From Gammaproteobacteria bacterium (GTDB lineage Bacteria > Pseudomonadota > Gammaproteobacteria > UBA4575): 64,000 bases of DNA. Shown here piece by piece: positions 8,100-23,935 of the stretch. The notes under the pieces are model-generated. The model did not search any database and was not told the origin of the DNA. It worked only from the letters and a program-made list of their open reading frames with translations. The stretch lies in assembly GCA_965243395.1 (NCBI GenBank), contig CBDEUS010000001.1:224001-288000 (forward strand), written 5' to 3'. Both the position numbers and the translations under genes were made by a program. Position 1 is the first letter of the stretch; every line of letters starts with the position of its first letter.

Positions 8100-8176
8100 G
8101 GCTATGTAGCTCAGTTGGTTAGAGCACAGCATTCATAATGCTGGGGTCATTGGTTCAAGTCCAATCATAGCCACCA
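8100..8176 (+). tRNA. tRNA-Met (CAT), elongator-like
   Basis: GGCTATG acceptor stem pairs with CATAGCC, then ACCA; D arm AGCTCAGTTGGTTAGAGC; anticodon arm CAGCA-TTCATAA-TGCTG; T loop GGTTCAAGTCC. Confidence 0.96.
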
Positions 8177-8180
8177 TTTA

Positions 8181-8193
8181 AATCAATAAGTTA
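8181..8193 (+). promoter_or_regulatory. Putative IHF site next to the left att
   Basis: AATCAATAAGTTA matches the WATCAANNNNTTR consensus, 4 bp after the tRNA end. Confidence 0.55.
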
Positions 8194-8233
8194 TATGATT
8201 ATTGATCATTATCAAGAATGGCTGATCTAGTCA

Positions 8234-8252
8234 TTCCTGCACAATTCCTGCA
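8234..8252 (+). repeat. Putative integrase arm-type sites (left copy)
   Basis: TTCCTGCACAATTCCTGCA (tandem TTCCTGCA), identical at 28500-28518. Confidence 0.7.
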
Positions 8253-8294
8253 AACAGTTCGAATTTGCGCCTTTTTATACTTATATACTGTTTT

Positions 8295-8322
8295 ATGTTT
8301 TCTTTCAGCTAATAGCAATCAT
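8295..8322 (-). repeat. Degenerate 28-bp site (A-like)
   Basis: atgttttcttt-cagcta-atagcaatcat. Confidence 0.55.
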
Positions 8323-8326
8323 TTAG

Positions 8327-8716
8327 TTATTTCTTGGAGACAACTACCATTTCTTTAATTTCAAGTTCTACTTCTGTGCCATATCCTAACTTCCATGTTG
8401 GGAATGGAGCTATTAACAAAGCAATCCAGCCTTGCATCGTTGTTACTTTAACTAATCCGAGATTTTGGTCCTCATCTGAAATCTGGTATGTGTCAATGCA
8501 ATGTGTAGGAATAATGCCGAGTGTTAGTACATAGAACATTGGTTCAAAACAATGAGCACCCTCTGGAAATTCGTTCTCTTTTGTTACTGAAATTTCTTCG
8601 AGACCTTTTTGTGATAATTGTAATTCGCTCTCTGGAACGACCTTATACGTGGCACAAGCAGGCAGAAATAATGCCAAAATAAGTGGAATAAGTACTTTTA
8701 TATTGTATTGCTTCAT
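8327..8716 (-). CDS. Cassette gene: hypothetical lipoprotein
   Basis: Lipobox-like LFLPAC after a hydrophobic leader; fills the interval between two sites. Confidence 0.7.
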   Translation of the reverse strand: MKQYNIKVLIPLILALFLPACATYKVVPESELQLSQKGLEEISVTKENEFPEGAHCFEPMFYVLTLGIIPTHCIDTYQISDEDQNLGLVKVTTMQGWIALLIAPFPTWKLGYGTEVELEIKEMVVVSKK

Positions 8717-8729
8717 ACAGACCTAATAA

Positions 8730-8757
8730 ATTTCCGCTTTCGGCCAATAACGGACAT
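8730..8757 (-). repeat. Solo 28-bp site (A type)
   Basis: atttccgcttt-cggcca-ataacggacat. Confidence 0.85.
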
Positions 8758-8767
8758 TTGTTCAAAA

Positions 8768-9139
8768 TTAATTACGACGTTTTCGTGGTTTAGCAACTAC
8801 TTGCCAACCATCTTCATAAATAATGATTCCTGGATCATCTGTTTTTAATGTATCTATGATAATTCCATGTTCTTCAAGTATAGCTTTTATAGCCCAAATT
8901 CTTTTTAGTGGCTCCTTAGCCTCGGGTTTAAACCAAGAAATTGCTCTAAAATGCTCTTCATCCTTTAATTCTGGAGGACTCTTTAAATGCTCCTTCAACC
9001 ATTCAATATTTTTTAATAATTCATTTTCTAAATACGTTTCTAGCTTTAAGCTATCTCTTAGCTCAAATGCAATTTGGAAAATTCCTAGATAGCTATTACT
9101 GCCTTTATTCTTAATTCGTCCTTGAAATCGGATAAACAT
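8768..9139 (-). CDS. Cassette gene: hypothetical protein
   Basis: 123-aa ORF bounded by sites. Confidence 0.7.
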   Translation of the reverse strand: MFIRFQGRIKNKGSNSYLGIFQIAFELRDSLKLETYLENELLKNIEWLKEHLKSPPELKDEEHFRAISWFKPEAKEPLKRIWAIKAILEEHGIIIDTLKTDDPGIIIYEDGWQVVAKPRKRRN

Positions 9140-9162
9140 TCTTCAAATTATTTTAATTTACA

Positions 9163-9263
9163 ATGTCCGCTTTGGGTCGTTAGGAGACATTTTGCGCTTG
9201 TATGTAATTGATTCCAACCTACCACTTCTCATTTTATGACTGCTTTCGGCCATTAGCGGTCAT
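9163..9263 (-). repeat. Doublet site (45-bp linker)
   Basis: atgtccgcttt-gggtcg-ttaggagacat +45 bp+ atgactgcttt-cggcca-ttagcggtcat; the upstream gene's TGA lies in the arm. Confidence 0.9.
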
Positions 9264-9655
9264 TTGGAGTAATGAAATTGTTTATAAACTATCGTTGCAA
9301 CACTAATATTTATTAAAACAAATATTAACCCTGGGATAAGACTTATAATGCTGTTTTGAAATCCAAAAAACTTCCAGTCTGTATTTATAATTTCATATAT
9401 CCACCATCCAGTATTAAATAACACTATTAAGTAGAAAATATATTGAGACCAGTTTCTATTCGCGAATAAAGCAATACCAGCTACCAAATATGGCATAGCG
9501 TAAAAAACAAACTTCCAATGTTTGTAAACATAAGCACCCCACAGCAGATATACTCCAGCAAGAATAACAGCTAAAATTGCCAACCATTTTCCCAAAGAAC
9601 TTGTCTTGTTATTTTCTCCTAATTCACTATTTGGTGTTGAATACGGATTATCCAT
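9260..9655 (-). CDS. Cassette gene: membrane protein (~4 TM)
   Basis: MDNPYSTP leader and four hydrophobic segments; stop overlaps the site arm. Confidence 0.72.
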   Translation of the reverse strand: MDNPYSTPNSELGENNKTSSLGKWLAILAVILAGVYLLWGAYVYKHWKFVFYAMPYLVAGIALFANRNWSQYIFYLIVLFNTGWWIYEIINTDWKFFGFQNSIISLIPGLIFVLINISVATIVYKQFHYSK

Positions 9656-9674
9656 CTGATTTATTTTATTAATA

Positions 9675-9775
9675 ATGTCTGCTTTGGGTCGTTACCAGAC
9701 ATTTTGCTCTTGTATGCTGTTGAATCCAACCGATTGCGTCCCATTTTTTGTCTCCTTTCGGCCATAAGCGGACAT
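9675..9775 (-). repeat. Doublet site (45-bp linker)
   Basis: atgtctgcttt-gggtcg-ttaccagacat +45 bp+ ttgtctccttt-cggcca-taagcggacat. Confidence 0.9.
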
Positions 9776-10258
9776 TCAATAACCGTAATATTTTGGGTTC
9801 TCTAAAACAGAACGAGCAGTTTCTTTAGCTTGTTCAGAAGTAAACTTTGCGCGAATAAGAACACCAACAGCACAATTTTCGTCTTTTCTTTTTATGCAAT
9901 TTTCAAACTCATCAGATAAGTTGAAAAACCAAAGTCTTTCATTAACTGTCATTCCTTTGTAACTTTCACTAAACCAAATATCCCATTCAAAATCCTTATC
10001 ATCAATTTTATAACTATCCCCACCCATAACTACATCAATTGCTTGCAAGTATTCATTTTGAGTTAATTCGCATGGCTCCCATTTTATATCTGTACCCAAT
10101 TTCCCATCATCAAATCCTCTTTTAAGTAAAAAATTAATTGTCGTTAAAGAGGGCCAATGCGCCATTTTCTTACAGTAAATAAATGATAAACCCAACTCGA
10201 ATAATCTAGCAGTGCTCTGATGTCCAGATTCAATTATTTGCACATTGTGGAGTTTCAT
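9776..10258 (-). CDS. Cassette gene: hypothetical protein
   Basis: 160-aa ORF; stop abuts the site. Confidence 0.7.
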   Translation of the reverse strand: MKLHNVQIIESGHQSTARLFELGLSFIYCKKMAHWPSLTTINFLLKRGFDDGKLGTDIKWEPCELTQNEYLQAIDVVMGGDSYKIDDKDFEWDIWFSESYKGMTVNERLWFFNLSDEFENCIKRKDENCAVGVLIRAKFTSEQAKETARSVLENPKYYGY

Positions 10259-10273
10259 TTTTCTAAATTTAAA

Positions 10274-10374
10274 ATGTCCGCTTTGGGTCGTTACCTGACA
10301 TTTTGAACTGGTATGTCTTTGTTTCCAACCTGTTTCATCCTAAATTATGTCTTCTTTCGGCCAGAAGCGGTCAT
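10274..10374 (-). repeat. Doublet site (45-bp linker)
   Basis: atgtccgcttt-gggtcg-ttacctgacat +45 bp+ atgtcttcttt-cggcca-gaagcggtcat. Confidence 0.9.
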
Positions 10375-10805
10375 TCAATAGTTTTACAGAAAGGCGGATT
10401 GTTGTTTGCGGATTCCAAGCTATTTGGATTTGTAAATGGCCAAATATTTCTATCAAAACCGTTATATTCTTTTGGGAAAAAGCCAAACGTGAATATTCTA
10501 ACTATGCCTCTTACGCAAGCTTTTATTCCTGTTTTTTTAGGCCATAAATATTCATAGTCAGATTTCAAGAATAGAATTACCCTAGCTAATTCTCTTTTAT
10601 GTTCATCTGGTATGCGCCAGTCACCTTTGAGCTTGTGAGTCTTAAAATCATCGTAAAGTGGCCAGCCTGCTTGCCACCATATTTCGTAAATAGCAAGGTC
10701 ATCTGATTCAGGAAGACGGCTTTCAAATTCAAAATTATCTATTTGCCCAGAATAGAAATGTCTTAATAATTCAGCAAATTTGTCTCGTGCTTTTCTATCA
10801 ATCAT
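10371..10805 (-). CDS. Cassette gene: hypothetical protein
   Basis: 144-aa ORF; TGA inside the site arm. Confidence 0.7.
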   Translation of the reverse strand: MIDRKARDKFAELLRHFYSGQIDNFEFESRLPESDDLAIYEIWWQAGWPLYDDFKTHKLKGDWRIPDEHKRELARVILFLKSDYEYLWPKKTGIKACVRGIVRIFTFGFFPKEYNGFDRNIWPFTNPNSLESANNNPPFCKTIE

Positions 10806-10815
10806 TTTTTTGCGA

Positions 10816-10916
10816 ATGTCCGCTTTGGGTCGTTACCGGACATTTTGCTCTTGTATGTAATTGATTCCAATCTACTACTTCTCATTTTTTGACTGCTTTC
10901 GGCCAATAGCGGTCAA
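10816..10916 (-). repeat. Doublet site (45-bp linker)
   Basis: atgtccgcttt-gggtcg-ttaccggacat +45 bp+ ttgactgcttt-cggcca-atagcggtcaa. Confidence 0.9.
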
Positions 10917-11308
10917 AATCTATGTTCATTATCATGATTAATTTTTCCAGTTCCATCATGATATAAATCTAGAACTACTAATCCAGAACCATCGTTACAA
11001 AAGTGTCTTGTTCCATTTTCTAACTCTTCATTTCTGGGGCAAAATATAGCAAGGCTTGTTACTTTATCTGGATCATATTTAAAAGTCGCATACACCAAGT
11101 TCGTATCAATATTATGTTGTTCGTGTATATCAGTAGCGCTTTTCGGCAAGTACTCTGGTAGCCACCCAGCAATCATCATGCCTGCTTCTTTTGCTTCATC
11201 GTAAGTTGAAAAATGAGACTCTGTATTTTCCCAATTTTTGCACCACGAAATTGATAGAAGAATAAGAATTAAGCTACCCGCGATTACTATAATAGATGAC
11301 TTAACCAT
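10913..11308 (-). CDS. Cassette gene: exported hypothetical protein (YbbD-like)
   Basis: N-terminal anchor; GWLPEYLPKSATDIHEQHNIDTN; TGA inside the site arm. Confidence 0.65.
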   Translation of the reverse strand: MVKSSIIVIAGSLILILLSISWCKNWENTESHFSTYDEAKEAGMMIAGWLPEYLPKSATDIHEQHNIDTNLVYATFKYDPDKVTSLAIFCPRNEELENGTRHFCNDGSGLVVLDLYHDGTGKINHDNEHRF

Positions 11309-11329
11309 GATGGATTGCGTATTAAGCTA

Positions 11330-11440
11330 ATGTCCGCTTTGGGTCGTTAGCAGTCATTTTATGTTTGAGTTTTTGTGATTCCAACCTAATTTCCCCCTGA
11401 GTGGTCTAGATCATGTCCGCTTTCGGCCAATAGCAGTCAT
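11330..11440 (-). repeat. Doublet site (55-bp linker)
   Basis: atgtccgcttt-gggtcg-ttagcagtcat +55 bp+ atgtccgcttt-cggcca-atagcagtcat. Confidence 0.9.
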
Positions 11441-11444
11441 TTCT

Positions 11445-11945
11445 TTATTTATTCTCGAGTAATTGTTTTAACTTATCCTCTGCAGCTTGAAGTTCATTTT
11501 CTAAATTTTTAACACGATCATGATATCCTTGAGTAAACCTGGTCGATCCACTTGAAAGTATGCCTGATGTACCTATTCGCTCACCTGGAAGTGGCTCTAT
11601 TCCTTTTTCTAATACCTCTTTTTTATTGGCTATATCTTGCCTCGTTGCTTTTATCTCAGCATCGCGTTTTTTGCGAGCACTAATTCTTTCGTTTATACGC
11701 TGACTTATGTTGTCATGTTGTTTCTTAATCTCTTTCTGTTTTACCTTAGTTTTACTTGCAGGAATAGTATTCGCATCTTGTAAGTCTATCTCTTCAATAT
11801 TGTTTGTATTATTTGGTGGGACAGAGGTATAAACGGTTTTACCATTTTCATCCACATATTTATAAACTTTTGACTGCGAATAAGCAGCAATTGTATACAT
11901 GAGCAAAAAGACAACTATAATTGAATTATTGAATCTATTATTCAC
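11445..11945 (-). CDS. Cassette gene: DUF4124-like exported protein
   Basis: Signal peptide, then VYKYVDENGKTVYTSVPP and a coiled coil. Confidence 0.8.
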   Translation of the reverse strand: MNNRFNNSIIVVFLLMYTIAAYSQSKVYKYVDENGKTVYTSVPPNNTNNIEEIDLQDANTIPASKTKVKQKEIKKQHDNISQRINERISARKKRDAEIKATRQDIANKKEVLEKGIEPLPGERIGTSGILSSGSTRFTQGYHDRVKNLENELQAAEDKLKQLLENK

Positions 11946-12054
11946 TTGATTTCCAAATAAATTATTTAGATTGAAATCATTTTATAGGTCATTATCACTA
12001 CATTTAGATGTCCATTTCACAATAATACGAATGTAATGTATTTTTCTGTTGCAA

Positions 12055-12082
12055 ATATCCGCTTTAGATCGTTAGCAGGCAT
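12055..12082 (-). repeat. Degenerate 28-bp site (B-like) at the array head
   Basis: atatccgcttt-agatcg-ttagcaggcat. Confidence 0.7.
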
Positions 12083-12331
12083 CTTAACTTATTTGATCGA
12101 TAATACTCATTAGCACAAGTAAACTACTTATATAATTATATTTAACATTTAATTGGTTAAATATAAAAGTCTGAACTAGTTCTAGAGTTGAGATTAGTTT
12201 ATATAATTAAGTCCAATATTGGACCTAAGTGTTATATATCTTAATTAGCTTAGCTATTATCGTTGAGGCTATATTATTTTACATTTAAGAATAGTAATTA
12301 AACAGTCTACATTAATTTGGAATAGTTAATT

Positions 12332-12745
12332 ATGAAACGTATTTTGATACTGGTAATCCTTTTTACTACTAATACATATGCTGGGGAAGCTGCTGTAAGT
12401 AGCGATCAATACGGTGAGAAGTGGCCTTTCACTGTTTCTGAAGGAATTGTTAAATGCAAAAAATATCAAAGTGGGAATCATATTCTTGATGCTGTTACGT
12501 TTTTATCAGAAGGCAAAGAGTATGCAATTAACGGTCATGCTATAACGGTTTCAAAAGACTCAAGTCTTAAAATAAATCAATCCATTGATAGCATATGGAA
12601 AGAAGACCCTAAATATAATGAAACGGTAAAAGAGCTTGCTGTAGCTTTAAATAAATCAGAAAAAGAAATTAGAGATGAAATGGGTTCGCCAATGCGCGTA
12701 AGTATAAGTCCTGTTTTAGATAAAGGGTTAAAACTTTGTAATTAA
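12332..12745 (+). CDS. YebY/DUF2511-like exported protein
   Basis: Signal peptide; VSSDQYGEKWPFTV.EG.V.C, YAING, C-terminal GLKLC. Confidence 0.7.
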   Translation: MKRILILVILFTTNTYAGEAAVSSDQYGEKWPFTVSEGIVKCKKYQSGNHILDAVTFLSEGKEYAINGHAITVSKDSSLKINQSIDSIWKEDPKYNETVKELAVALNKSEKEIRDEMGSPMRVSISPVLDKGLKLCN

Positions 12746-12842
12746 AATTAGTAAGAGTTTAAGGTACTTTAGCACACAACATCAAGCCCCAAGAACTTTT
12801 GCTCTTGTCGTAATTCAACTAACCCAACAGTGTTTTAATATT

Positions 12843-13205
12843 ATGAAAAATTCAGATGAATATAAAGAATTTGTTACTGAACAACTTGATGAATGTTTTT
12901 TAAGCTATCGAGAATCAGTAAAGCAACACTTAAGCAAATTTGGGCCAGAAAACTTAGACAAGGTTTTAAACAAAATTGAAGCCGATATTAAAAATATTTT
13001 AGTTCAAAATTACATACATGATTATTCTAATATGTATGACAAATGGGATAAAGAAACTAGATCACTCTATATTAGAAATGAAGAAAAAAAGCAGGATTAC
13101 AAATGGTTGTTGCTTAAATTCTTAGGGTATGCGGTAACCATTATCTGTATTGGCTTTGTTTACAAATATTTTGGACTGTCGCCCTTCCTAAATCCTAATA
13201 GTTAA
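12843..13205 (+). CDS. Hypothetical protein with C-terminal TM
   Basis: 120-aa ORF. Confidence 0.5.
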   Translation: MKNSDEYKEFVTEQLDECFLSYRESVKQHLSKFGPENLDKVLNKIEADIKNILVQNYIHDYSNMYDKWDKETRSLYIRNEEKKQDYKWLLLKFLGYAVTIICIGFVYKYFGLSPFLNPNS

Positions 13206-13223
13206 TTTCTTAAAAACTCAGTT

Positions 13224-13424
13224 ATGAGATACAGAAAGCCAAGCCTAAAAACCTTACTCGGTATTACCAAAGCCAAACGTCGTGTGAAAAAGGATCTTGG
13301 TATATATAAAGTGACCAAGTACACCAATGCGCCAAAAAACGCTAAGAGACGTGTAAAAAGAAAGCTTGGCTATTACTCAGAACCTATGAAGATATTTCGA
13401 TTTATTAAAAGACTATTGAAATAA
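13224..13424 (+). CDS. Small very basic hypothetical protein
   Basis: K/R-rich 66 aa with an internal AKRRVK repeat. Confidence 0.55.
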   Translation: MRYRKPSLKTLLGITKAKRRVKKDLGIYKVTKYTNAPKNAKRRVKRKLGYYSEPMKIFRFIKRLLK

Positions 13425-13691
13425 TACGGAAACATTTTCACATATTTTGGTCCGAAAACGGACCTAACACTTTTACTTTAATAACAAAGGCTATATGAGT
13501 TTTCTTTTAGAATATTTTTCATACAACATTTTTTGAATCTGAATTCAACAATAAAATAATTGTTATTTATAAATTCATTCACACACAATTACGAATAAAA
13601 ATTTCTTAATGTAAATTGTGACGATGTCAATTATTTGTCGTTGCTACAAATACTTCTGTAATTAAACTATCGTAATTAACAATTATCATAA

Positions 13692-16600
13692 TTGTTAGTT
13701 AATAAAAACAACAATTCAGATTTGGGGAGTGTGAGTATGAGGCCGTTCAATCTTGTTCGTTCAGTTTGTAAGAATTTAAAAGCGAGAAATGAGAGTTCAT
13801 TCTCTAATCTTCCAAATGATATTTTAATTCGATTTAAATTTTTAACATTACTTGTAATTCTATATTCATCATTGTTGCAACCATTGCACGCTCTTGAATT
13901 TTGCGGAGGTTCTTATGGTTCATGCAGTGCAGCGCAAGACGCATGTGATACAGTAACCGGTCACAGTAATTGTGACAGCCCGCCAACTAATAGCAGTAAT
14001 AATCATTGTCAGTCTGGAACTCATTATCACTCTGGAAATGTATTCAAAAGTGGCGGTTTTGATAACTATCACTTTACCTGCCTATCCGGCGGAGGTTGTG
14101 GTACGGGTATTACAGAATACACAATCAATAGTTTATGTTTACCAGAAGGGTTTAAAGTTGGAAATACGAAAGGTGCTCCACAAATGTGTGTGGGCAATCC
14201 TCTTAATCCTGCGACTGGAAATAAATTTCAGGCAGAACAAGACATCTCCATCCCGAATAGCGATTTATCCTTTTCGCGTTACTACAATTCAGTAGACGAA
14301 GGGCATGCGGGTGAATTAATCATTAAGGGAAGATGGACTTATGATTATCTTCAAAGACTAGATCCTTCTAATGGATTTGTAACCGTATATCGTCCTGATG
14401 GGAAGGAACTCGTATTCGATTGCCCAGCCACAACTGGGTCTTGTACAGGAGACACCGATCTCAAAATAGAACTTGAGAAAACTTCTACAGGATATTCGCT
14501 ATTAACTTCCAGTAATAACACAGAAGACTATGATACGAATGGAAAACTGCAATCCATTACCTCACTCGCGGGCCAAACACAAACATTATCTTATAACAGC
14601 ACATCTGGATTACTGGAAACCGTTACTGATCATTTTAATCGTACCTTAACGTTTACTTTTGGGACAAGTAGTCGAATAGAAACCATTACCGATCCAAATG
14701 GCGAAGTCTACACATATGATATAGACACGGATAAAAATCTACTATCGGTAACGTATCCCGATGACACACCTGGTACCACAACGGATAATCCAAAACGTGA
14801 GTTTCAATACAACGATACAAATTTTGATTCATTACTCACAGGTATTGTGGATGAGAATGGAAACTTATATGCCGAATTTGATTACGACACCCAAGGACGG
14901 GCGATTCAATCAAAACATGCGGGAGGTGTGGAGCAAGTTGATTTAGTTTATAACGTGGATGGCACTACAACTGTCACGGATTCATTAGGTGCAACGAACA
15001 CCTTCACCTTTGATATCGTGGCATTTGTTCCCAAAACAACGGCTATATCCGGTGGCCAATGTGGCAGCGGTTGTAGTTCACAAGCACAAGCGCAAACTTA
15101 TGACACGAATGGTTATATTGCATCCAGTACCGATTTTGAAGGGAATGTAACTAACTTTGTCAATAACAGTCGGGGACTACAAACTTCAAGAACCGAAGCG
15201 GTGGGAGAATTAGAAGAGCGCACGATAACGACTGACTGGCATTCGACTCTCAGGCTACCTACCAAGATCACAGACAATGGTAAAGAAACTTCCATTACTT
15301 ATAACACTAATGGTCAGGTTCTTACCCGAACTGAAAAAGATTTATCCAATAACAATACGCGCACGACAACGTTTACCTATGATAGTAATGGGAATGTGTT
15401 GACTATCAATGGACCGCGCACTGATATTGATGACATTACCACCTTCACCTATGACACGTCTGGCAATCGTGCCAGCATGAGCGTTGACCCCGATGGCGCA
15501 GGATCTGCACCTGCACAAGTCACTAACTATACTTCTTATGATAATAGCGGGCGTTTGCTCTCCATGACCGATCCTAATGGCGTGGTCACAACGATGGACT
15601 ATGACCCACGTGGGCGCTTAGAGTCGCGTACGGTTGCAAGTGGAACATCCGAAGCTGCAACCACTACTTTTGAATACGATGGCGTGGGGAATGTCACAAA
15701 AATCACATTGCCAAATAATAGTTATCTTTCTTACACGTACGATACTGCACAACGCTTAACGAACATTGAAGACAATCTTGGAAATAAAATTACCTATACC
15801 TTAGATGACTTGGGTAATCGCACCAAAGAAGATGTGTTTGATACCAGCAGCACCTTACGCCGTACACAAAGCCGTGTGTTTGATCAACTCAGTCGAATGA
15901 CCCAGCACACAGGAGGAGCAAGTCAAGTAAGCATTTTTGGTTATGATGGTAATGGTAATCAGGTTTCTGTACTAGACCCTTTAAGCCGAAGCTCTACCTC
16001 TTCCTTTGATGCGTTGAATCGTCTCATTACTTCAACCGATCCGGCATTAAGTGATACAGACTATACGTATGATGATCGCGATAACTTGATCAGTGTATCG
16101 GATGCACGAAGTCTTACTACCACCTACACCTATGATGATTTAGATAACTTAACTCAACTCGTTAGTCCAGACACAGGAACAACTACCTATACGTATGATG
16201 ATGCTGGGAATCGACTTACCCAAACCGATGCCAGAAGTAAAACTACAACCTATACCTATGATGCGTTAAATCGAGTCAGTTCTATAACTTATCCTGATAC
16301 TAGTTTGAATGTCACGTTTACATATGACTCAGGAACGAATGGTAAAGGTCGTTTAACGGGCATGACCGACGCATCAGGTACGACAACATACACCTATGAC
16401 AAGCGTGGAAATCTTGCGAGTGAATCAAAAGTCATCAGCGGTCAAACGTATCTTACGAGTTATGCGTATGATGATGCAGACAATGTCACACAATTAACCT
16501 ATCCAAGTGGGCGCACGGTTGATTACGAATACAATAGCATCGGACAAGTGGTTCAAGTGGAGACTACCTTAGGCAGTAATACCAACATTGTTGCATTTGA

Positions 16601-18815
16601 TATTAACTACCACCCATTTGGACCTATTAAAAGTTTAATCTTTGGTAACGGGTTAAGCACTGCATACACATTTGATCAAGACTATCGACTTACCGATGCG
16701 GTTACAGACAATAATACTCATTCATTGACGTACGCTTATGATCTTGGCGATAACATTTCTACGATCACTGACAATAATGATTCAACGCGTAATCAATCTT
16801 TCACGTATGACAATTTAGATCGCTTATTAAGTGGTAACGGGATTTATGGTTCACTGAGTTACACTTATGATGTAGTCGGTAACCGTCTCACGGAAACAAA
16901 AAATTCAGTAACCGATACTTATAGTTATGCGACTACCAGTAATCAAGTACAAACTATCACTGGTGGTCAAATTAATTCGTTTACTTACGATGCTGCAGGA
17001 AATATCACAGTTGGAAGCGGGGATACCTTCACGGTAAATGATGCCAATCGTATGGCAACCGCAGCAAGTGGTTCGACAACAGCTACGTATACCTATAACG
17101 GCAAAGGCGAACGTACTATAAAAGTAGTGGGTTCTACGACAACGATTTACCACTATGACCAAAATGGACAGCTAATAGCTGAGTCCGATGCACTCGCAAA
17201 TTCACAAGCTGAATATATCTATCTCAATGGGCAACGCCTTGCGTTAATTGATCCTAATGGAACAGGAACGGGCGCATCGGGTATTGTCATCGATAACAGT
17301 GATTCTAGCTCGACTAGTACGATTGGAAATTGGACGACTACCGTAACGGGTACGGGAGATTACGAAGGATCTGATGTTGCGCAGTCAGCATTGAATAGCA
17401 TTGAAATCATTATTGATGATGTTGATTCTTCAACGTCATCTGTAGGTAATTGGTGGCTTAGCACAGCTTCTCATTGGTATGGAGGTACGGCTCAGCATAT
17501 AAGATGGCCAGGCTCAGGTAGTCAAATTTTTACTTGGAATTTTTCTTCTATATCAAGTGGTAATTATGAGGTAGCTGCCCAATGGTGGGCTCACCCGCAA
17601 TATACATCAATTGCACCCTATACTATAAATCACACACAAGGCAGCACGCTTGTATTGGGAGATCAAACCCAAAATCCGGGCTGGAATGTGCTCGGAACAT
17701 TTTCGCTTGATTCCACCAGCAGTATCGAACTAAGCGATGATGCAAATAATAAATATGTCATGGCCGATGCGATACGCTTAATTGATAACACCATACCCAC
17801 ATTCACTTGGGATGCACCGGTGGGCACGTTTGATGTGTATGCAGAATGGACACAAGATTCGAGTCATGCAACGGATTCAACTTATACACTTCATCATTCA
17901 ACAGGACAGACAACTGTAACGGTGAATCAACAAACCAATGGTATAGGTTTGAATTATTTAGGTACAGCAACTTTTGATGCAACAGGAAAAGTTGTTTTGG
18001 CTAGCGGGTCAGATGGAAATGTCATTGCCGATGCAATTCATTTTATAGGGACTTCCACATCCACCACTGCATTGTATTACATTCACAGTAATCACTTAGA
18101 CACCCCTCAAGCCATTACCGACGGAAGTAAAACGGTTGTTTGGAGTGCGGATTATGAACCGTTTGGGGAGACAAATATAACCGTTAATACTTTAACGAAT
18201 AATCTACGATTCCCTGGCCAATATGCTGATAGTGAAAGTGGATTACATTACAACTACTTTAGAGATTACAACCCTAGTATTGGGCGCTATATGCAATCAG
18301 ATCCGATTGGGTTACTTGGCGGATTTAATACCTATGTTTATGTGAAAGCAAATCCACAAAAATTTACCGACAACTTAGGTTTATATGATTCTGATTTTGA
18401 TGCAGCAGAACAAACAATCAATAGATTATTCAAAGGATACAATATTCCTCCTATTTCGACATGTAGCGGTGGTGTAGATTGTACAAGACGCGGATTAGAT
18501 ACATTTGATGAAGGTGGTTATTTACCAGAAACAGATGAAATTATTATAAATGAATTAGATTTTGGTACTGGAGATAATATGAGAGACATAGCTCTCAATG
18601 ATGTACAAGCATATAATCTACTGAACACTTATATCCATGAAATCTTGCATGCAAATCAAAACTTGTTTGGTGATTTCGCAATGAGAAACTTACAAAATGG
18701 ACGAGGTTCTCCGGGAGCATTTTTGCATGACACAATTTATCGATGGGCAGACATTCTAACAAAAAGAAACTTTCAGTCATTCAATGAGTTGAGAGAGCAA
18801 TGCGAAATTAAGTAA
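13692..18815 (+). CDS. RHS/YD-repeat polymorphic toxin with inserted beta-sandwich domains and a C-terminal HExxH domain
   Basis: GNPLNPATGNKF (DUF6531-like), many TYTYD repeats, RHS core LRFPGQY...HYNYFRDY...QSDPIGL, end-of-core DNLGL, then IHEILH; true start may be downstream (e.g. 13737). Confidence 0.9.
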   Translation: MLVNKNNNSDLGSVSMRPFNLVRSVCKNLKARNESSFSNLPNDILIRFKFLTLLVILYSSLLQPLHALEFCGGSYGSCSAAQDACDTVTGHSNCDSPPTNSSNNHCQSGTHYHSGNVFKSGGFDNYHFTCLSGGGCGTGITEYTINSLCLPEGFKVGNTKGAPQMCVGNPLNPATGNKFQAEQDISIPNSDLSFSRYYNSVDEGHAGELIIKGRWTYDYLQRLDPSNGFVTVYRPDGKELVFDCPATTGSCTGDTDLKIELEKTSTGYSLLTSSNNTEDYDTNGKLQSITSLAGQTQTLSYNSTSGLLETVTDHFNRTLTFTFGTSSRIETITDPNGEVYTYDIDTDKNLLSVTYPDDTPGTTTDNPKREFQYNDTNFDSLLTGIVDENGNLYAEFDYDTQGRAIQSKHAGGVEQVDLVYNVDGTTTVTDSLGATNTFTFDIVAFVPKTTAISGGQCGSGCSSQAQAQTYDTNGYIASSTDFEGNVTNFVNNSRGLQTSRTEAVGELEERTITTDWHSTLRLPTKITDNGKETSITYNTNGQVLTRTEKDLSNNNTRTTTFTYDSNGNVLTINGPRTDIDDITTFTYDTSGNRASMSVDPDGAGSAPAQVTNYTSYDNSGRLLSMTDPNGVVTTMDYDPRGRLESRTVASGTSEAATTTFEYDGVGNVTKITLPNNSYLSYTYDTAQRLTNIEDNLGNKITYTLDDLGNRTKEDVFDTSSTLRRTQSRVFDQLSRMTQHTGGASQVSIFGYDGNGNQVSVLDPLSRSSTSSFDALNRLITSTDPALSDTDYTYDDRDNLISVSDARSLTTTYTYDDLDNLTQLVSPDTGTTTYTYDDAGNRLTQTDARSKTTTYTYDALNRVSSITYPDTSLNVTFTYDSGTNGKGRLTGMTDASGTTTYTYDKRGNLASESKVISGQTYLTSYAYDDADNVTQLTYPSGRTVDYEYNSIGQVVQVETTLGSNTNIVAFDINYHPFGPIKSLIFGNGLSTAYTFDQDYRLTDAVTDNNTHSLTYAYDLGDNISTITDNNDSTRNQSFTYDNLDRLLSGNGIYGSLSYTYDVVGNRLTETKNSVTDTYSYATTSNQVQTITGGQINSFTYDAAGNITVGSGDTFTVNDANRMATAASGSTTATYTYNGKGERTIKVVGSTTTIYHYDQNGQLIAESDALANSQAEYIYLNGQRLALIDPNGTGTGASGIVIDNSDSSSTSTIGNWTTTVTGTGDYEGSDVAQSALNSIEIIIDDVDSSTSSVGNWWLSTASHWYGGTAQHIRWPGSGSQIFTWNFSSISSGNYEVAAQWWAHPQYTSIAPYTINHTQGSTLVLGDQTQNPGWNVLGTFSLDSTSSIELSDDANNKYVMADAIRLIDNTIPTFTWDAPVGTFDVYAEWTQDSSHATDSTYTLHHSTGQTTVTVNQQTNGIGLNYLGTATFDATGKVVLASGSDGNVIADAIHFIGTSTSTTALYYIHSNHLDTPQAITDGSKTVVWSADYEPFGETNITVNTLTNNLRFPGQYADSESGLHYNYFRDYNPSIGRYMQSDPIGLLGGFNTYVYVKANPQKFTDNLGLYDSDFDAAEQTINRLFKGYNIPPISTCSGGVDCTRRGLDTFDEGGYLPETDEIIINELDFGTGDNMRDIALNDVQAYNLLNTYIHEILHANQNLFGDFAMRNLQNGRGSPGAFLHDTIYRWADILTKRNFQSFNELREQCEIK

Positions 18816-18847
18816 ATCTAGGCATTGCTTGGTATAATCATCTCAAT

Positions 18848-19249
18848 ATGAAAGGATCAATAAAAGTATTTATAGTTGTACTTATACTATTGGCATTACC
18901 AATTTACCCTAAGTTTCCGGTACAAGTTGCAGATCCTGTGGGAGTGGAAGATTCTCGAATTAAAGTAAATATAAATACCGATGAGTTAGAAGTAATACTC
19001 CATACGATTAGAGGAAAAAAATTTGATTTTTTATATAGTAGATTAAAAAATAGGAATACAAGACCTCTTATTGGAATCTACGACATATCTGGCAAAAGTA
19101 CTGATGAAAAATTATCTCAATTAGATAATTCAATAAAAGATTCTGAAATAATAGCTATTACTGGATCGAAAGGTTATAGAGAGTCGTATTATTTTAATAG
19201 AGATGGTGCATCACTAAAATTTATCACTTCACGAGATATCATGATCTAA
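18848..19249 (+). CDS. Putative immunity protein of the RHS toxin
   Basis: Small gene 32 bp after the RHS stop, with an N-terminal hydrophobic segment; role inferred from position. Confidence 0.5.
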   Translation: MKGSIKVFIVVLILLALPIYPKFPVQVADPVGVEDSRIKVNINTDELEVILHTIRGKKFDFLYSRLKNRNTRPLIGIYDISGKSTDEKLSQLDNSIKDSEIIAITGSKGYRESYYFNRDGASLKFITSRDIMI

Positions 19250-19309
19250 TATCAATATTTTATCATTTTCACTTTTTCCTAACATCTATCAGTCGCATAT
19301 CCAATCTCT

Positions 19310-19345
19310 CTAACGATTAAAAGTAGCCCCACATAGAGCAGGGCT
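19310..19345 (+). repeat. 36-bp direct repeat, copy 1
   Basis: CTAACGATTAAAAGTAGCCCCACATAGAGCAGGGCT; 33/36 identical to 21969-22004. Confidence 0.75.
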
Positions 19346-19613
19346 AGATGTCTTAACATTAAATGGTTGATTCAGAAAGTTGAGTGAATTTTAGCTAAGT
19401 CTTGATGTGTAATTTCAGAACTTAAATAAATTTGAAAGAGTATCTCCAAATGCCGTATGGTCAAAGTGGACGATGCGTGTGCTTTAATAGCTTTCATAGT
19501 AGTCAAACAACCAGCAATCACATCATGGTCATTTCCCATGTATACGAACCTAATCTGTTACCAAGAGATTTATCATAATCAAAATTAATGATAACTTGTG
19601 CATAAAGATAAAC

Positions 19614-20285
19614 TTACACTTTTGCCTCATCTTCTATAGGTAATCCTTCTAATTTCCATTCTGGAAACCCATCTTGCAATCGACGAGCTTTATAGCCTTT
19701 TGCTCGAAGCTTAGCGACTGCATCAAATGCTAGTAGGCAATGAGGACCCCTACAATACGCTATTACTTCTTTTGATTTTGGAATTTCATTTAATTTACTT
19801 TTTAATTCTGTAAGAGGAATGCTCTTAGAATTAGGGATATGTCCCAATTGAAATTCACTTCGTGGACGCACGTCTATAACTGTTACGACACCCTTACTTG
19901 CTCGCTTTAACAGCTCTTCCCTCGTAATAGGTTCTAATCCATCTTTACTCGTCAAATACTTGGATATTAATACTTGTATTTCAGCCAAGTTAGCTTCAGC
20001 AATTTCTCGTAACAATGTCATAAGCGCAATTATTGAATTATCGCTTAAGCTGTAATAGGACTTTTGGCCTTGAGATCTAGATTTTACCAGCCCAGAGCGT
20101 CTAAGCCCTTGTAAATGTTGGGACGTATTCGCAACCGTAAGCCCGGACTTTTTTGCAAGATTTTCTACTGTAGCTTCTCCTTGTGCCAAAAATTCCAGTA
20201 ATTCTAAGCGGTTACCGCTACTTAGAGATTTACCAATCATCGCAAACTGAGAAAAAAGCTCTTTCTTGAAGTGATTTGTTTCCAT
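19614..20285 (-). CDS. ArsR/SmtB regulator fused to a rhodanese domain
   Basis: RLELLEFLAQGE..VE.LA...ANTSQHLQ HTH; DVRP..EF..GHIP and AYCRGPHC rhodanese motifs. Confidence 0.92.
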   Translation of the reverse strand: METNHFKKELFSQFAMIGKSLSSGNRLELLEFLAQGEATVENLAKKSGLTVANTSQHLQGLRRSGLVKSRSQGQKSYYSLSDNSIIALMTLLREIAEANLAEIQVLISKYLTSKDGLEPITREELLKRASKGVVTVIDVRPRSEFQLGHIPNSKSIPLTELKSKLNEIPKSKEVIAYCRGPHCLLAFDAVAKLRAKGYKARRLQDGFPEWKLEGLPIEDEAKV

Positions 20286-20299
20286 ATATATAATTCTAT

Positions 20300-20321
20300 T
20301 ATTCAATAGATTAATTGAATA
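20300..20321. promoter_or_regulatory. Putative ArsR-family operator
   Basis: Perfect inverted repeat TATTCAAT-AGATTA-ATTGAATA just upstream of the regulator in a divergent region. Confidence 0.6.
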
Positions 20322-20457
20322 TTTATTGTGTGCTTAGAAAGAAATTATATCACTGCCATATATGAAATATGCGCTATTTCTAAGGTTGATATTAATTACT
20401 GCTTTCGACTCTGAGTCAATCAAAAAAAAGTCAATAAAAATGTTAGGAGGTAGTTTT

Positions 20458-20538
20458 ATGGATGGGCTTGCATACAACATCATATATTTAGTCTTTGTAG
20501 TTGGGCTTGCATATATTTTCTATGCCAATCTAAGTTAA
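20458..20538 (+). CDS. 26-aa single-TM peptide
   Basis: MDGLAYNIIYLVFVVGLAYIFYANLS* preceded by AGGAGG. Confidence 0.5.
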   Translation: MDGLAYNIIYLVFVVGLAYIFYANLS

Positions 20539-20615
20539 ATATATCTTTTGATAATTTACATAGTTGTACACATATCGTATTTACAAATGCTACAGATCAA
20601 TAAAAAGGTAAGTCT

Positions 20616-21119
20616 ATGAATCGGACACAAAGTATTTTCATTTATCTATACATTTTTGGAGTGCTTTTTTTTACGAATATAGCCAATGCAAGTAAACCAC
20701 CTGATGTAGATGCATTAAAAAATGTGAACGAGGGAAAAGTTGTATGGGATGTGACTGTAGGTAACCCTAAAAAGCTTTTGTTAATGCTAAAAGTAATCGA
20801 AGAAACATATTATGACCTTATAAATCAGAATGTTAAACCGGATATGGTTTTTGCCTTTCACGGACCTGTTATGAAACTGATAACTACAGAATCACCCGAT
20901 TTAGCACTTGATGAAGAAGAGGCGCATGAGGAAGTTTTGGAGTTATTGACAAGCTTCAGCCAAAAGCGAGGGGTAAAAATGGAATCATGTTCGATTTCAT
21001 CAAGATTACTCAATATTGAAAATGACACAATAATTTCTGAGATCAAACCTGTAGGTAATACCTTTGTGTCGTTAATTGGGTATCAAAAACAAGGCTATTC
21101 GCTCATACCAATTTACTAG
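20616..21119 (+). CDS. DsrE-like exported protein
   Basis: Signal peptide, KVVWDV, FHGP, ESCSIS, SLIGYQKQGY. Confidence 0.7.
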   Translation: MNRTQSIFIYLYIFGVLFFTNIANASKPPDVDALKNVNEGKVVWDVTVGNPKKLLLMLKVIEETYYDLINQNVKPDMVFAFHGPVMKLITTESPDLALDEEEAHEEVLELLTSFSQKRGVKMESCSISSRLLNIENDTIISEIKPVGNTFVSLIGYQKQGYSLIPIY

Positions 21120-21204
21120 TAACTATTTTATTTTTTTTAATATTAACAAATATTCATAAAACTAATCTATCGGCAATTCTCATCCATTATTTAGGAGCTC
21201 GTCT

Positions 21205-21318
21205 ATGACTGAAGAAGAATACAAACATGCTATTAAAAACCTCGTAATTAGCGTATTTGCAGCGGGCGTGCCACTTTATTTGTTCTTTTTTTTAGCTATT
21301 ATTTTAGATAATCATTAG
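21205..21318 (+). CDS. 37-aa single-TM peptide
   Basis: MTEEEYKHAIKNLVISVFAAGVPLYLFFFLAIILDNH* preceded by AGGAG. Confidence 0.5.
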   Translation: MTEEEYKHAIKNLVISVFAAGVPLYLFFFLAIILDNH

Positions 21319-21332
21319 GATATAGAGTTTGT

Positions 21333-21443
21333 ATGTATGCATTGGATAATAAGCAGACATTTTAAGTTTATAAATTATTGAATCTAACCTGACATTCTCC
21401 TCAATGGTTTAATTTATGACAACTTACGGCCAATAGCAGGCGT
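21333..21443 (-). repeat. Degenerate orphan doublet site (55-bp linker)
   Basis: atgtatgcatt-ggataa-taagcagacat +55 bp (contains ttgaatctaacc)+ atgacaactta-cggcca-atagcaggcgt. Confidence 0.7.
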
Positions 21444-21508
21444 GAATTAATCATCTTATACGCTTTGATTATGGCATTTTTCTTTTAATTTTTAGCAAGA
21501 TAACCTAT

Positions 21509-21877
21509 ATGAATCTTAAATCAGTTATTTTTTTAATTTTGTTTAATATTATTTTAGTTTTGTCTGGATGCTCATCACCTGAAGAAATGGCAGCCAACAA
21601 GGCTGAAAAGGAAGCACTTAAGCATCTTCACTCAGCGCAAAATGGTGCAGCAATTTCTCAGTTAAAACTTGGTAATGCGTACCATGTTGGTAATGGCGTA
21701 ACCCAAGACAATAAATACGCGTACATGTGGGTAAGCTTTGCAGTGGAGCAAGGATTAGGCGCTTCTGCGGATGAATCTTTTGAAAAAATAAAAGCGGATA
21801 TGACCTCTTCTGAAATTGAGGAAGCTAAAAAATTAGCATTAACATGTAAGAAAGAAAAAGGTTACAGAGACTGCTGA
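21509..21877 (+). CDS. Sel1-repeat lipoprotein
   Basis: LSGC lipobox; SQLKLGNAYHVGNGVTQDNKYAYMW Sel1 repeat. Confidence 0.82.
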   Translation: MNLKSVIFLILFNIILVLSGCSSPEEMAANKAEKEALKHLHSAQNGAAISQLKLGNAYHVGNGVTQDNKYAYMWVSFAVEQGLGASADESFEKIKADMTSSEIEEAKKLALTCKKEKGYRDC

Positions 21878-21968
21878 ATTGCATAAATTCTTACTCTGGT
21901 CTAATTATGACCTATTGAAAATATTTACTTTGGATTAAATGCTTTCCTTGTATATATATCTACTATAC

Positions 21969-22004
21969 CTAACGATAAAATGTAGCCCCACATTGAGCAG
22001 GGCT
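21969..22004 (+). repeat. 36-bp direct repeat, copy 2
   Basis: CTAACGATAAAATGTAGCCCCACATTGAGCAGGGCT. Confidence 0.75.
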
Positions 22005-22120
22005 TACTTAGTTAGTTATTATTGCTTAGCAAAGTCTTCATATTTATCCATAAATGCACGTACTTCGCTCGTAATGTTCTATCCTAAAAGAAGCACTTTT
22101 ATATGAGTTTGAAATGACCG

Positions 22121-22411
22121 CTACTGCTCAAACGGCAATTCAAGTTGACGGTCTACAATTGCCTGTAATGAGTCTTGCAGTTGTTGCGTAGAGATTTCTT
22201 GTCGATTGTATAAATCTAGTAGACAAAACGATTTATTGCCATCGATACCATGTGCTTTTGAAAACAGGTACATGCAATCATCGTGGTTAACTGCGTATTC
22301 GGGGTATTTTTTATCTAATTCGATCTGCTCAGTTTGTGTTGCAGCCTCGCGGGCACGAAGATATTGAATATATGGAGACTTCTCAGCTTCCCATTGATTA
22401 TTTATGTTCAT
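22121..22411 (-). CDS. Hypothetical protein
   Basis: 96-aa ORF with an AGGGG SD-like sequence. Confidence 0.55.
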   Translation of the reverse strand: MNINNQWEAEKSPYIQYLRAREAATQTEQIELDKKYPEYAVNHDDCMYLFSKAHGIDGNKSFCLLDLYNRQEISTQQLQDSLQAIVDRQLELPFEQ

Positions 22412-22587
22412 ATCAAACCCCCTTTTAAAAAAATCAAATGATTGTCTGATAACAGAAAACTGATTAATTCCATAAATTAATAACGGAACTCTTGTGATTT
22501 CCCGTTACTTAATATTTATTGTACCCTCATTAATAAATTTCAGTCAATCGTTTTTGAGCCCTCATAAATTGTTGATACAATTCACAA

Positions 22588-22770
22588 ATGAGAAAACGTA
22601 AACCGGGTAGACCAAAATCTGAAAACCCTGCAACTAAAAAGCTACCTATGGTGCGGGTTACACCAGACCAGTTAGAAAACTATAAGGAAGCTGCCGAAAT
22701 TGAAGGGTTGGCTTTCAGTGCTTGGGTTAGGACTGTACTGGATAAGGCTGCGAAGCGCGTTCTTAAATGA
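22588..22770 (+). CDS. Small ribbon-helix-helix-like DNA-binding protein
   Basis: GRPK...MVRVTPDQLENYKEAAEIEGLAFSAWVRTVL pattern. Confidence 0.65.
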   Translation: MRKRKPGRPKSENPATKKLPMVRVTPDQLENYKEAAEIEGLAFSAWVRTVLDKAAKRVLK

Positions 22771-22777
22771 AACAAGT

Positions 22778-23704
22778 ATGAGTCATGGCCCAACTAGAAT
22801 TAGTACTAAAGGATTATGCATTTATTGTCATTCTACAAATGTAGACTTAACTGATGAACATATACTTCCGTATTTCATTGGTGGTTTTCATATTATTAAT
22901 AATGCTAGTTGTAAAGAGTGTGCAAAAATTACAACTAAATTTGAAAGAGATGTAGCGCGAGGTTTTTGGGGAGATGCTAGAAACGCTTATGGAGCACCTA
23001 CTCGAAGAAAAAAGAAACGAAAGAAATTTATTTATCTAGATGATCAGATAAATATAGGGGGAAAGTTAAAAATACCGTTTAATGAATATCCTGCGCCTAT
23101 GATTTTTTATTGCATGGGCACTGCGGGGTTATTACTTGGAAACTCCGAATCCGTTGACAGCGCGAGCAATTGGACTTTTAAGGCGATAGTAGATCAAAAA
23201 AAACTTGAGGCTTTTGAGAAAAAATATCCTGGTCAATTAACTACAAAAGTTCGGTTCCCACATGATAGTTTTGCAAAATTAATAATAAAAATTGGTTATG
23301 GACAAATTTTGTGTTCTCTTGACCCAGGAGATTTTCGCCCGATTTGTTTGCCGTACCTTTTTGGCAAGAAAACTAATTATTCGTACATAGTTGGTAGCAG
23401 GAAAAGCATACCGGAACCAGAGCCAGGATTAGGTTATATAATGAGAAGTCATTGTATTGGGACTTCAGATTACTTACTGCTAGTTGCTGAAATAAGAATC
23501 ATCGCTAATAATCATACTCCTGCTTATCATGTAGTAGTGGGTGATGTATCTGGGGAAAATCAAGTAAGTTATGTACGCAAAAAAATTCAAGCAGTTTACG
23601 ATGTTATCATTCCAGATAACTCAGCAGGACCGCAATACACTTCTGATGAATTTCATTGGGCGCCACAAATCTGGCCATTACCAGTTCAGACTGAATGTAG
23701 CTAA
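22778..23704 (+). CDS. HNH-endonuclease-like protein
   Basis: CIYC...TDEHILP..IGG...CKEC zinc/HNH pattern at the N-terminus; start moved to MSHGPT. Confidence 0.7.
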   Translation: MSHGPTRISTKGLCIYCHSTNVDLTDEHILPYFIGGFHIINNASCKECAKITTKFERDVARGFWGDARNAYGAPTRRKKKRKKFIYLDDQINIGGKLKIPFNEYPAPMIFYCMGTAGLLLGNSESVDSASNWTFKAIVDQKKLEAFEKKYPGQLTTKVRFPHDSFAKLIIKIGYGQILCSLDPGDFRPICLPYLFGKKTNYSYIVGSRKSIPEPEPGLGYIMRSHCIGTSDYLLLVAEIRIIANNHTPAYHVVVGDVSGENQVSYVRKKIQAVYDVIIPDNSAGPQYTSDEFHWAPQIWPLPVQTECS

Positions 23705-23736
23705 GAGAAATTTGCAATCTAAATCATCTAAATTAA

Positions 23737-23925
23737 ATGAATAAGAAAAGAGGCATGCAAAGGCTTGGGTTATTGTTAGGGACGATAGGACTACTCTGGC
23801 TCTTTGTAATGTGGAATGCTTTTAGCGGCAGTAGTTTTTGGGAGGGGTTTTTAGCTGCAGGAGTTTTCCCCGTTGCTGTAGTGATGGGAATTTATTGGGT
23901 TATATATGGGTTTGTTGTAGATTAA
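23737..23925 (+). CDS. Small 2-TM membrane protein
   Basis: Two hydrophobic helices. Confidence 0.5.
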   Translation: MNKKRGMQRLGLLLGTIGLLWLFVMWNAFSGSSFWEGFLAAGVFPVAVVMGIYWVIYGFVVD

Positions 23926-23935
23926 ATTTGTCATT

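Follow-up and report, generated by a model that had tools for sequence, protein, structure and literature searches.

Two classes of 28-bp palindromic site, paired in a fixed order between the single genes of accessory arrays in a gammaproteobacterium

In a 64,000-nucleotide stretch of a gammaproteobacterial contig (GenBank assembly GCA_965243395.1, contig CBDEUS010000001.1, positions 224,001 to 288,000), which is called the window here and numbered from its first letter, two groups of small genes are interrupted by copies of one short palindromic element. These junction sites, the composite elements they form two by two and what they may do for the genes between them are the subject of this analysis. 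An initial annotation, made from the letters alone, had pointed to the interval 9163–11440, where sites of two classes, A and B, stand as pairs between the open reading frames (ORFs) of the first group, array 1. The features of array 1 are the following, all sites being 28 bp long.

8295..12082, minus strand: array 1, seven small ORFs (123–166 aa) with 13 sites between them
8295, 8730 and 12055: solo sites of array 1, the first weak and A-like (23 bits, centre CAGCTA), the second A, the third B-like
9163..9263, minus strand: pair 1, A site 9236–9263, 45-bp linker, B site 9163–9190, sites 73 bp apart; the stop codon of ORF 9260–9655 lies within the A site
9675..9775, minus strand: pair 2, A site 9748–9775, linker, B site 9675–9702, sites 73 bp apart
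10274..10374, minus strand: pair 3, A site 10347–10374, linker, B site 10274–10301, sites 73 bp apart; the stop codon of ORF 10371–10805 lies within the A site
10816..10916, minus strand: pair 4, A site 10889–10916, linker, B site 10816–10843, sites 73 bp apart; the stop codon of ORF 10913–11308 lies within the A site
11330..11440, minus strand: pair 5, A site 11413–11440, B site 11330–11357, 55-bp linker with a GGGGGA run, 83-bp offset

Each junction site is an imperfect palindrome with the layout 11-6-11 and, on the strand opposite to the genes, the consensus ATGTCCGC TTT [6 bp] WTA GCGGWCAT. Two inverted 11-bp arms around a 6-bp centre is also the layout of tyrosine-recombinase core sites. 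The genome analysed (G000; 2.58 Mb in two contigs, C1 and C2, 38% G+C, 100%-complete) was scanned as a whole with a position weight matrix, with the same genome reversed but not complemented as the control; 137 matches were found at ≥12 bits against 7 in the control, and an exact core pattern matched 28 times against none for the backwards control. The genome has about 120 copies of the site, grouped in about a dozen clusters, and those located by the initial annotation are all there. Its central hexamer is bimodal. Among the 123 sites scoring ≥16 bits, with centres read on the strand opposite to the genes, CGGCCA (class A) occurs 36 times and GGGTCG (class B) 28 times; these are the spacers TGGCCG and CGACCC of the initial annotation, read from the opposite strand. 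With up to one mismatch from the class centre, 46 sites belong to A and 43 to B, and the other 34 are more degenerate. The three centre positions that tell the classes apart are linked, since C-C-A is found in 44 and G-T-G in 43 of the 123 sites where single-position frequencies lead one to expect about 12 and about 14. The two spacer classes noticed in the window are thus confirmed by the genome-wide tabulation.

The full composite junction measures about 101–111 bp and consists, from the upstream to the downstream gene, of A, a conserved linker and B, with the two sites offset by 73, 82–83 or 92 bp. All 15 pairs of the genome have the order upstream gene, A (or decayed A), linker, B (or decayed B). 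When the arrays fetched from relatives are included (n = 41 pairs), A precedes B in 39 pairs, two pairs are unclassifiable and none is reversed, so that the strict order claimed for the doublets, of which five lie in 9163–11440, holds well beyond the window. An exception in a relative is an inverted B-type site occupying the A position (locus L149, 8961/9034). The linker exists in a 45-bp and a 55-bp form. Its core GGTTGGA is found in 32 of the 41 pairs and the motif WATCAA, the core of the IHF consensus, in 20; the full 13-bp IHF consensus is matched in nine of 41 linkers on the gene strand and in none on the other strand.

The second group of genes in the window, array 2, has the same make-up in a looser form.

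57803..63888, plus strand: array 2, cassettes separated by sites, continuing beyond the window to about C1:292675
57803 (b), 58336 (B-like, centre GGGCCG), 58982 A / 59055 B, 59531 B, 60273 A / 60346 b: sites of the first half, in gene order
60902 B, 61244 B, 61645 A, 61831 A, 62281 A / 62354 B, 63861 B: sites of the second half, in gene order

No Pfam family was assigned to 10 of the 17 ORFs scanned in both arrays, and an eleventh has a sub-threshold match only. Five of the seven ORFs of array 1 (8327–11945) and five of the ten of array 2 are without a family; the tenth ORF of array 2 gives the sub-threshold match, to MalM (20.5 bits versus a cut-off of 26), and the families recognized in this array are DUF6627, DUF4919, SnoaL and DUF2059. 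The genes fit tightly between the sites. In the two arrays the gap from site to start codon is 6–33 nt (10–23 nt from B to the start codon in array 1), and three of six array-1 cassettes have their stop codon within the A site, while in array 2 the sites at 60902, 61244, 61831 and 62281 each contain one; stop codons inside A are supplied by its ATGAC. A scan of array 1 gave seven promoter-like sites versus 16.5 expected, only one of them in a linker, and no intrinsic-terminator-like site versus 2.0 expected.

How the sites are placed with respect to variable DNA was determined by comparison with the closest relative compared, G012, which has about 88% identity in flanking DNA. The comparison covered six regions (166 kb in total, 61 sites), of which 58% aligned and 42% had no counterpart in G012. 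No fewer than 55 of the 61 sites are located in unaligned DNA; five, counted by hand from the alignment intervals, are on edges (C1:28674, 41292, 118302 and 422917; C2:248475) and only one, which is weak, is inside aligned DNA. Homology ends within a site at C1:28689 (base 16 of 28), C2:248483 (base 9) and C1:116668 (base 15), and at C1:422944 on the last base of a site. The initial annotation had proposed that breakpoints be mapped against sites, and in this comparison block ends do fall on them, three inside a site and one at its last base. With bimodal spacers and block ends at sites, neither of the outcomes named there as refuting the reading has appeared. At the array 2 locus, G012 carries a different array without any cassette in common, only the junction repeats match, and homology at the left edge fades about 70 bp before the first site.

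Three cassettes have been found at other loci in G012. The first, of GNAT type judging from motif appearance (C1:45072–45538, outside the window), has 90% identity between its different loci in the two genomes, and the G012 copy keeps a half-site after the stop codon. The second, nitroreductase-like (86% identity), is homologous from the arm of its upstream degenerate site to the centre of its downstream B site, and the third, encoding DUF6627 (81% identity), is conserved from site to site. One array-1 cassette also lies within an array of another species, G011, at 68% identity and with different neighbours. The location of 55 of 61 sites in DNA lacking from G012, together with the three relocated cassettes whose homology ends at sites, identifies the sites as cassette junctions. 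In G012 itself (C5:~17530–17620; locus L167, ~1030–1120), a 45-bp insert interrupts the centre of a B-type site, the five bases CGACC standing on either side of it, and an end of the same insert (GGATGGCGGAAGTGC) abuts a site remnant beside the GNAT cassette (locus L141, ~18700–18770); there seems to be a small element in G012 that targets the site centre.

The surroundings of array 1 include a genomic island at a tRNA gene, and the main neighbouring features of the window are as follows.

8100..8176, plus strand: tRNA-Met (ARAGORN and Rfam), attachment point of a 20.5-kb island; G012 is aligned up to 8176 and again from 28648
8177..28647: genomic island without counterpart in G012, with array 1 at the tRNA end and an integrase at the far end
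13692–18815, plus strand: ORF of 1707 aa within the island
21333..21443, minus strand: decayed pair inside the island, 83-bp offset
27253–28521, minus strand: P4-type integrase, at the opposite end of the island from the intact tRNA; it reaches none of the Xer or integron cut-offs
28648–28695: 48-bp repeat of the tRNA 3′ end (98% identity), bounding the island
38221–38343, minus strand: c-di-GMP-I-GGC riboswitch aptamer (62 bits versus a gathering score of 59)

An island of the same layout is present in contig 2, with an integrase at C2:500560–501858, a tRNA-like match at C2:543248–543336 and an array adjoining the tRNA.

The element is not private to this genome. Among 14 other genomes compared within the genus, 13 contain the exact core, with 15–152 copies each and none for the backwards control in any, and both classes and the A–B order recur in 13 of the 14. 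The core is also present in one further genus and absent from 12 other families of the class (one genome each); the paired junction occurs in five of 11 genera sampled in the family. For more distant taxa, a 19-letter degenerate core, for which about 280 single matches are estimated to arise by chance, was scanned over 185,579 species genomes and gave at least 119 loci, mostly from alphaproteobacteria, with 565 sites among them. At 58 of the loci listed, at least three sites are clustered within 8 kb. The listed loci belong to alpha-, beta- and gammaproteobacteria, apart from isolated ones (1–3 sites) in metagenome-assembled genomes of Acidobacteriota, Verrucomicrobiota and Planctomycetota. 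In these listed loci, the arms are near-perfect palindromes, a third centre class, C, of 7 nt (ACCCCCR) is present, adjacent sites are 38–52 bp apart and the order B-(C)-A is respected by 95 of the 103 adjacent pairs and by 18 of the 19 triplets. Since this order is kept across other taxa, the order of the centre classes is an ancient property of one composite element. The G-run (GGGGGA) of the 55-bp linker resembles the class C centre of alphaproteobacteria, and to judge from this resemblance the 55-bp linker of the present genus may be a decayed C site. At four of the at least 119 loci (including L014, 1146–2213) there are genes for IS110-family transposases, as judged by an N-terminal motif.

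Searches in existing collections gave little. Plasmid and phage collections contained no match for the pair and one weak match for the alphaproteobacterial triplet, and Rfam gave no match on the sites at either gathering or permissive thresholds. No description of this element was found in the literature searched, which included that on dif-like cassettes, Legionellales repeats and alphaproteobacterial REPIN/RAYT systems, and among the papers listed for the arm sequences themselves none was relevant. The arm hexamers do not appear in the text of the catalogue of repetitive extragenic palindromes (REPs; PMC3733652), whose figures or additional files may list them.

How the sites are read can be approached from their variation. 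The arms of a site do not covary (312 versus 310 and 311 versus 307 in shuffles), nor does A covary with B in a pair (769 with the own partner versus 785 ± 4 with random ones), and stem pair 4–25 is T·T in 61 of 180 sites. Together with a primary sequence that is held across bacterial classes without compensatory change, this argues for a protein that reads the duplex and against hairpins.

The anatomy of the sites, their conservation, their confinement to variable DNA and the ending of homology blocks at them are direct observations. Comparative sequence evidence further supports their being recombination-type cassette borders, and we regard the exchange of cassettes at these junctions as shown; we only infer that this exchange is site-specific rather than driven by homology, and that the sites are read by a protein. 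We give an even chance to the following explanation: the sites are sequence-specific junction elements that bound swappable single-gene cassettes, A and B are the halves of one composite and exchange takes place at the junctions. The sites would be bound as duplex DNA, most likely by protein, and would delimit promoter-poor single-gene cassettes in accessory arrays. A and B would be two fixed halves of one old element with its well-conserved arms toward the genes, and not independent target sets; in alphaproteobacteria and other groups a third site, C, would stand between them. Recombination at the junctions or within them would add cassettes to arrays, remove them and carry them from one array to another, and the arrays would then work like those of integrons or dif modules. 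A more far-reaching proposal, which is tentative and somewhat doubtful, is that of a cassette system distinct from integrons that extends across Proteobacteria, with scattered single matches (1–3 sites per locus) in other phyla, a junction composed of two or three protein-binding 28-bp palindromes (A, C, B) in fixed order, centre classes acting as a positional code within it and exchange by an enzyme outside the families usually associated with such repeats, which is neither IntI nor a RAYT, IS110-type or serine recombinase.

Several results weigh against the explanation by cassette junctions, above all those on the enzyme. Over the whole genome, no integron integrase was found (best TIGR02249 score 134.9 bits versus a cut-off of 265), and Y1/RAYT transposases (PF01797), IS110-type DEDD transposases and serine recombinases are absent. 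The only recombinases that recur beside the arrays of this genome are the island integrases and, perhaps by chance, xerC/xerD. Public reads gave no support for excision joints or circles; four source runs contain the stretch, the sides of the joints are only 20–35 nt and are explained by repeats, and the metagenome contigs X1–X3 (150–650 bp, depth 2–8, patchy cover) are uninformative either way. No recent cassette duplicates were found inside the genome (identities ≤69%), some boundaries of variable DNA are not on a site and at one locus the homology appears to stop on the outer edge of the site instead of in its centre. As every comparison was made across species that are about 88% identical, breakpoints are resolved to within a few bases only. 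The genes beside the sites in alphaproteobacteria are ordinary-looking ones for transporters and regulators, and there the sites may be plain intergenic repeats. Finally, homologous recombination between repeats of 28–110 bp is a live alternative to a site-specific reaction.

The inventory of tyrosine recombinases is short. The genome encodes five, namely the two Xer proteins, XerC and XerD, and three integrases of tRNA islands. In a relative whose closed genome contains many arrays, XerC and XerD are accompanied by a single other integrase. XerC/D were found in 31 of 31 family genomes sampled, with or without sites. A conventional dif-like 28-mer (C1:959290–959317) is found where the cumulative GC skew peaks (~950 kb of contig 1) and points, together with xerC and xerD, to an ordinary two-recombinase dimer-resolution system. 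The genes upstream of array starts, inspected by eye with no Pfam run, show nothing recombinase-like, and among the at least 119 loci listed for other taxa, three have a tyrosine recombinase, of different kinds. Two single B-gene-A cassettes are situated ~3 kb from xerD (C1:422917–423419) and xerC (C2:247855–248502), respectively, both in segments that differ from G012; the chance that xerC and xerD both fall within 8 kb of a site cluster is ~2%, and the arrangement may be a coincidence.

Among the other explanations, the one that survives best, although we consider it unlikely, makes the sites structural or regulatory intergenic repeats comparable with REPs and the bacterial interspersed mosaic elements (BIMEs) that REPs compose, the shuffling of cassettes being a by-product of homologous recombination between the 28–110-bp repeats. 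The sites could then serve as targets of IHF- or gyrase-type nucleoid proteins, as stabilizers of mRNA 3′ ends or as supercoil insulators. The linker motifs GGTTGGA (32 of 41 pairs) and WATCAA (20 of 41, presumably the IHF core) fit such roles, as do the position of sites at the 3′ ends of genes, the ordinary genes beside them in alphaproteobacteria and the failure to find a dedicated recombinase in the genome, and E. coli BIME-1 provides a precedent in the available text of PMC3333891. A terminator-like function does not agree with the array 1 scan, in which such sites numbered 0 versus 2.0 expected. The partners and hallmarks of REPs are also missing: there is no RAYT in the genome, a Y1 transposase occurs in one of five other carrier genomes and its gene is not flanked by sites, and no conserved GTAG/CGTC tag stands outside the stem, the palindrome extending to the outermost ATG/CAT. 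Moreover, unlike lineage-specific REPs, these sites keep their primary sequence across bacterial classes without compensatory change, and within the genus they are virtually absent from core intergenic DNA (one weak site of 61).

A second explanation is that of the initial annotation, which took A and B for core sites of a tyrosine recombinase that fall into two sets, with 6-bp overlaps too different to permit A × B exchange, and the linker protected thereby from deletion. It now appears improbable. It correctly rests on the 11-6-11 architecture and the bimodal centres, and it can point to homology blocks that end near the site centre in three cases (bases 16, 9 and 15 of 28). Flank classes were examined in 21 arrays, which provided 91 genes with both flanks, 40 solo–solo neighbour pairs and 117 classifiable junctions. 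The combinations (5′, 3′) are (B,A) in 53 genes, (A,A) in 18, (B,B) in 12 and (A,B) in 8, close to the 50.7, 20.3, 14.3 and 5.7 expected if both flanks were independent; independent they are, and B-gene-A is the commonest unit. Paired arrays as such do not contradict two channels, since any cassette taken with one junction has A/A and B/B bounds there. The same-class runs of solo sites do exist at the positions named for them, yet such neighbours are not more frequent than chance (17 of 40), and no cassette carries rare centre variants on both of its flanks. Two channels that do not cross-react are thus not supported. The proposal that the sites border exchangeable units is supported by homology blocks that end at sites, by the three relocated cassettes and by 55 of 61 sites in variable DNA; the restriction to A/A or B/B units is not.

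The arms, on which the same annotation relied, are indeed asymmetric. The gene-facing arms of paired sites have 7.6–7.7 of 8 matches and the linker-facing ones 6.7–6.9. However, solo sites show the same asymmetry (6.4/7.3 for A, 7.5/6.8 for B), which makes it a property of the class and not of facing a linker, so that conserved and drifting arms are real as a description and untenable as an effect of pairing. Likewise, the view of solo B sites as recombination hybrids retains the fact that an A-style arm is somewhat commoner among them, at position 21 only (G in 34 of 42 versus 22 of 42 paired B sites), the other arm positions being unshifted. If anything, the partly mixed arms of solo sites would suggest A–B exchange, slippage or deletion of the linker, the opposite of a barrier; protection of the linker by the A/B mismatch is not supported. 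A circle of 73 bp would in any case be disfavoured whatever the spacer. The premise of a tyrosine recombinase lacks a candidate: XerC, XerD and the three island integrases are the only such enzymes of the genome, and none of them attains the integron-integrase cut-off. Finally, A and B travel as one element of fixed order across bacterial classes, with a third centre class elsewhere. Two channels explain the classes less well than does a single old composite junction of which A and B are the fixed halves.

The least probable explanation, to which we attach very little credence, is a single-strand mechanism in which the pair folds like an attC site (A with B) or HUH enzymes recognize hairpins with B and A as element ends: it would account for the four half-sites of a pair, with conserved outer and degenerate inner arms over ~100 bp in the outline of attC, for B and A centres that are largely complementary (4 Watson–Crick and 1 wobble pair of 6 in the consensus reading) and for B-gene-A as the commonest unit, and it is contradicted by the fact that A matches the B of its own pair no better than a B picked at random, by the lack of covariation within sites, by solo sites of 28 bp that are too short for a folded two-box substrate, by the absence of IntI and Y1 transposases and by an orientation of the arrays with respect to replication that is not uniform (read off, not counted).

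If the sites are true recombination sites, as in the explanation by cassette junctions, they would represent a second, integrase-independent route for stocking and swapping single accessory genes, including in alphaproteobacteria, from which integrons are reportedly absent. The conserved 28-bp sequence also offers a handle for fishing the binding protein and for mining cassette pools in metagenomes, as has been done with attC. If they are BIME-like architectural repeats, their restriction within the genus to horizontally acquired cassettes would still be an unusual link between repeats and accessory DNA.

Three known systems come close. The pdif modules of Acinetobacter, as far as the available parts of PMC7399989 and PMC12907356 describe them, resemble the present arrays in having single genes between 28-bp sites laid out as 11-6-11, of which one arm is well conserved and the other variable, in stacked modules; the bracketing of gene modules by 28-bp 11-6-11 sites that is typical of Xer/dif modules is found here as well. 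They differ in that the arms studied here match those of the genome's own dif-like site at only 4 of 11 and 4 of 11 positions, that the element is chromosomal, with no match in the plasmid collection, and that the presence of XerC/D does not track that of the sites.

Integrons and CALINs, the latter being clusters of attC sites without an integrase (Cury et al. 2016, in the available text of PMC4889954), share with these arrays compact cassettes of one orientation that hold a single gene, mostly an ORFan, and after each of which comes an imperfect palindrome with best-conserved outer parts, and, as far as that text goes, complete turnover of cassettes at one locus between related species and cassettes common to several arrays. 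Co-orientation, the lack of own promoters and variable content, by which such cassettes are recognized, are all found here. The absence of IntI from the genome excludes an integron and not a CALIN, as a CALIN needs no nearby integrase. The differences lie in the junctions, 77 of the 117 classifiable ones being single 28-bp sites. An attC, which acts as a folded single strand and has conserved core motifs in its outer parts, measures roughly 55–140 bp, and a 28-bp site is shorter than any known one; the 101–111-bp pairs have the four-box outline. The 7-bp core motifs of attC are absent by eye from the ends of the present sites (no covariance model was used), and the arrays, about a dozen, are dispersed, where an integron has a single platform with attI. 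There is no evidence of folding.

The third system is that of BIMEs, to which two unit types, a fixed composite with a conserved linker, extragenic location and high copy number, all observed here, are common. In E. coli, BIME-1 is built from two REPs, y and z1, around a long well-conserved linker L, often with an IHF site (available text of PMC3333891), and REP superfamilies require a GTAG or CGTC tag outside the stem (available text of PMC3733652). The present units differ from each other mainly in the 6-bp centre, there is neither a RAYT nor an external GTAG tag, and the element is conserved across bacterial classes and, in the genus, confined to variable arrays and not spread in core operons. 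The likeness to BIME-1, as the available text of PMC3333891 presents it, concerns two palindrome types in a fixed arrangement, a conserved linker of tens of bp, occurrence both as solo units and as composites, a location at gene 3′ ends and a possible IHF-like core, and for two classes of site in strict order BIME-1 is the nearest precedent.

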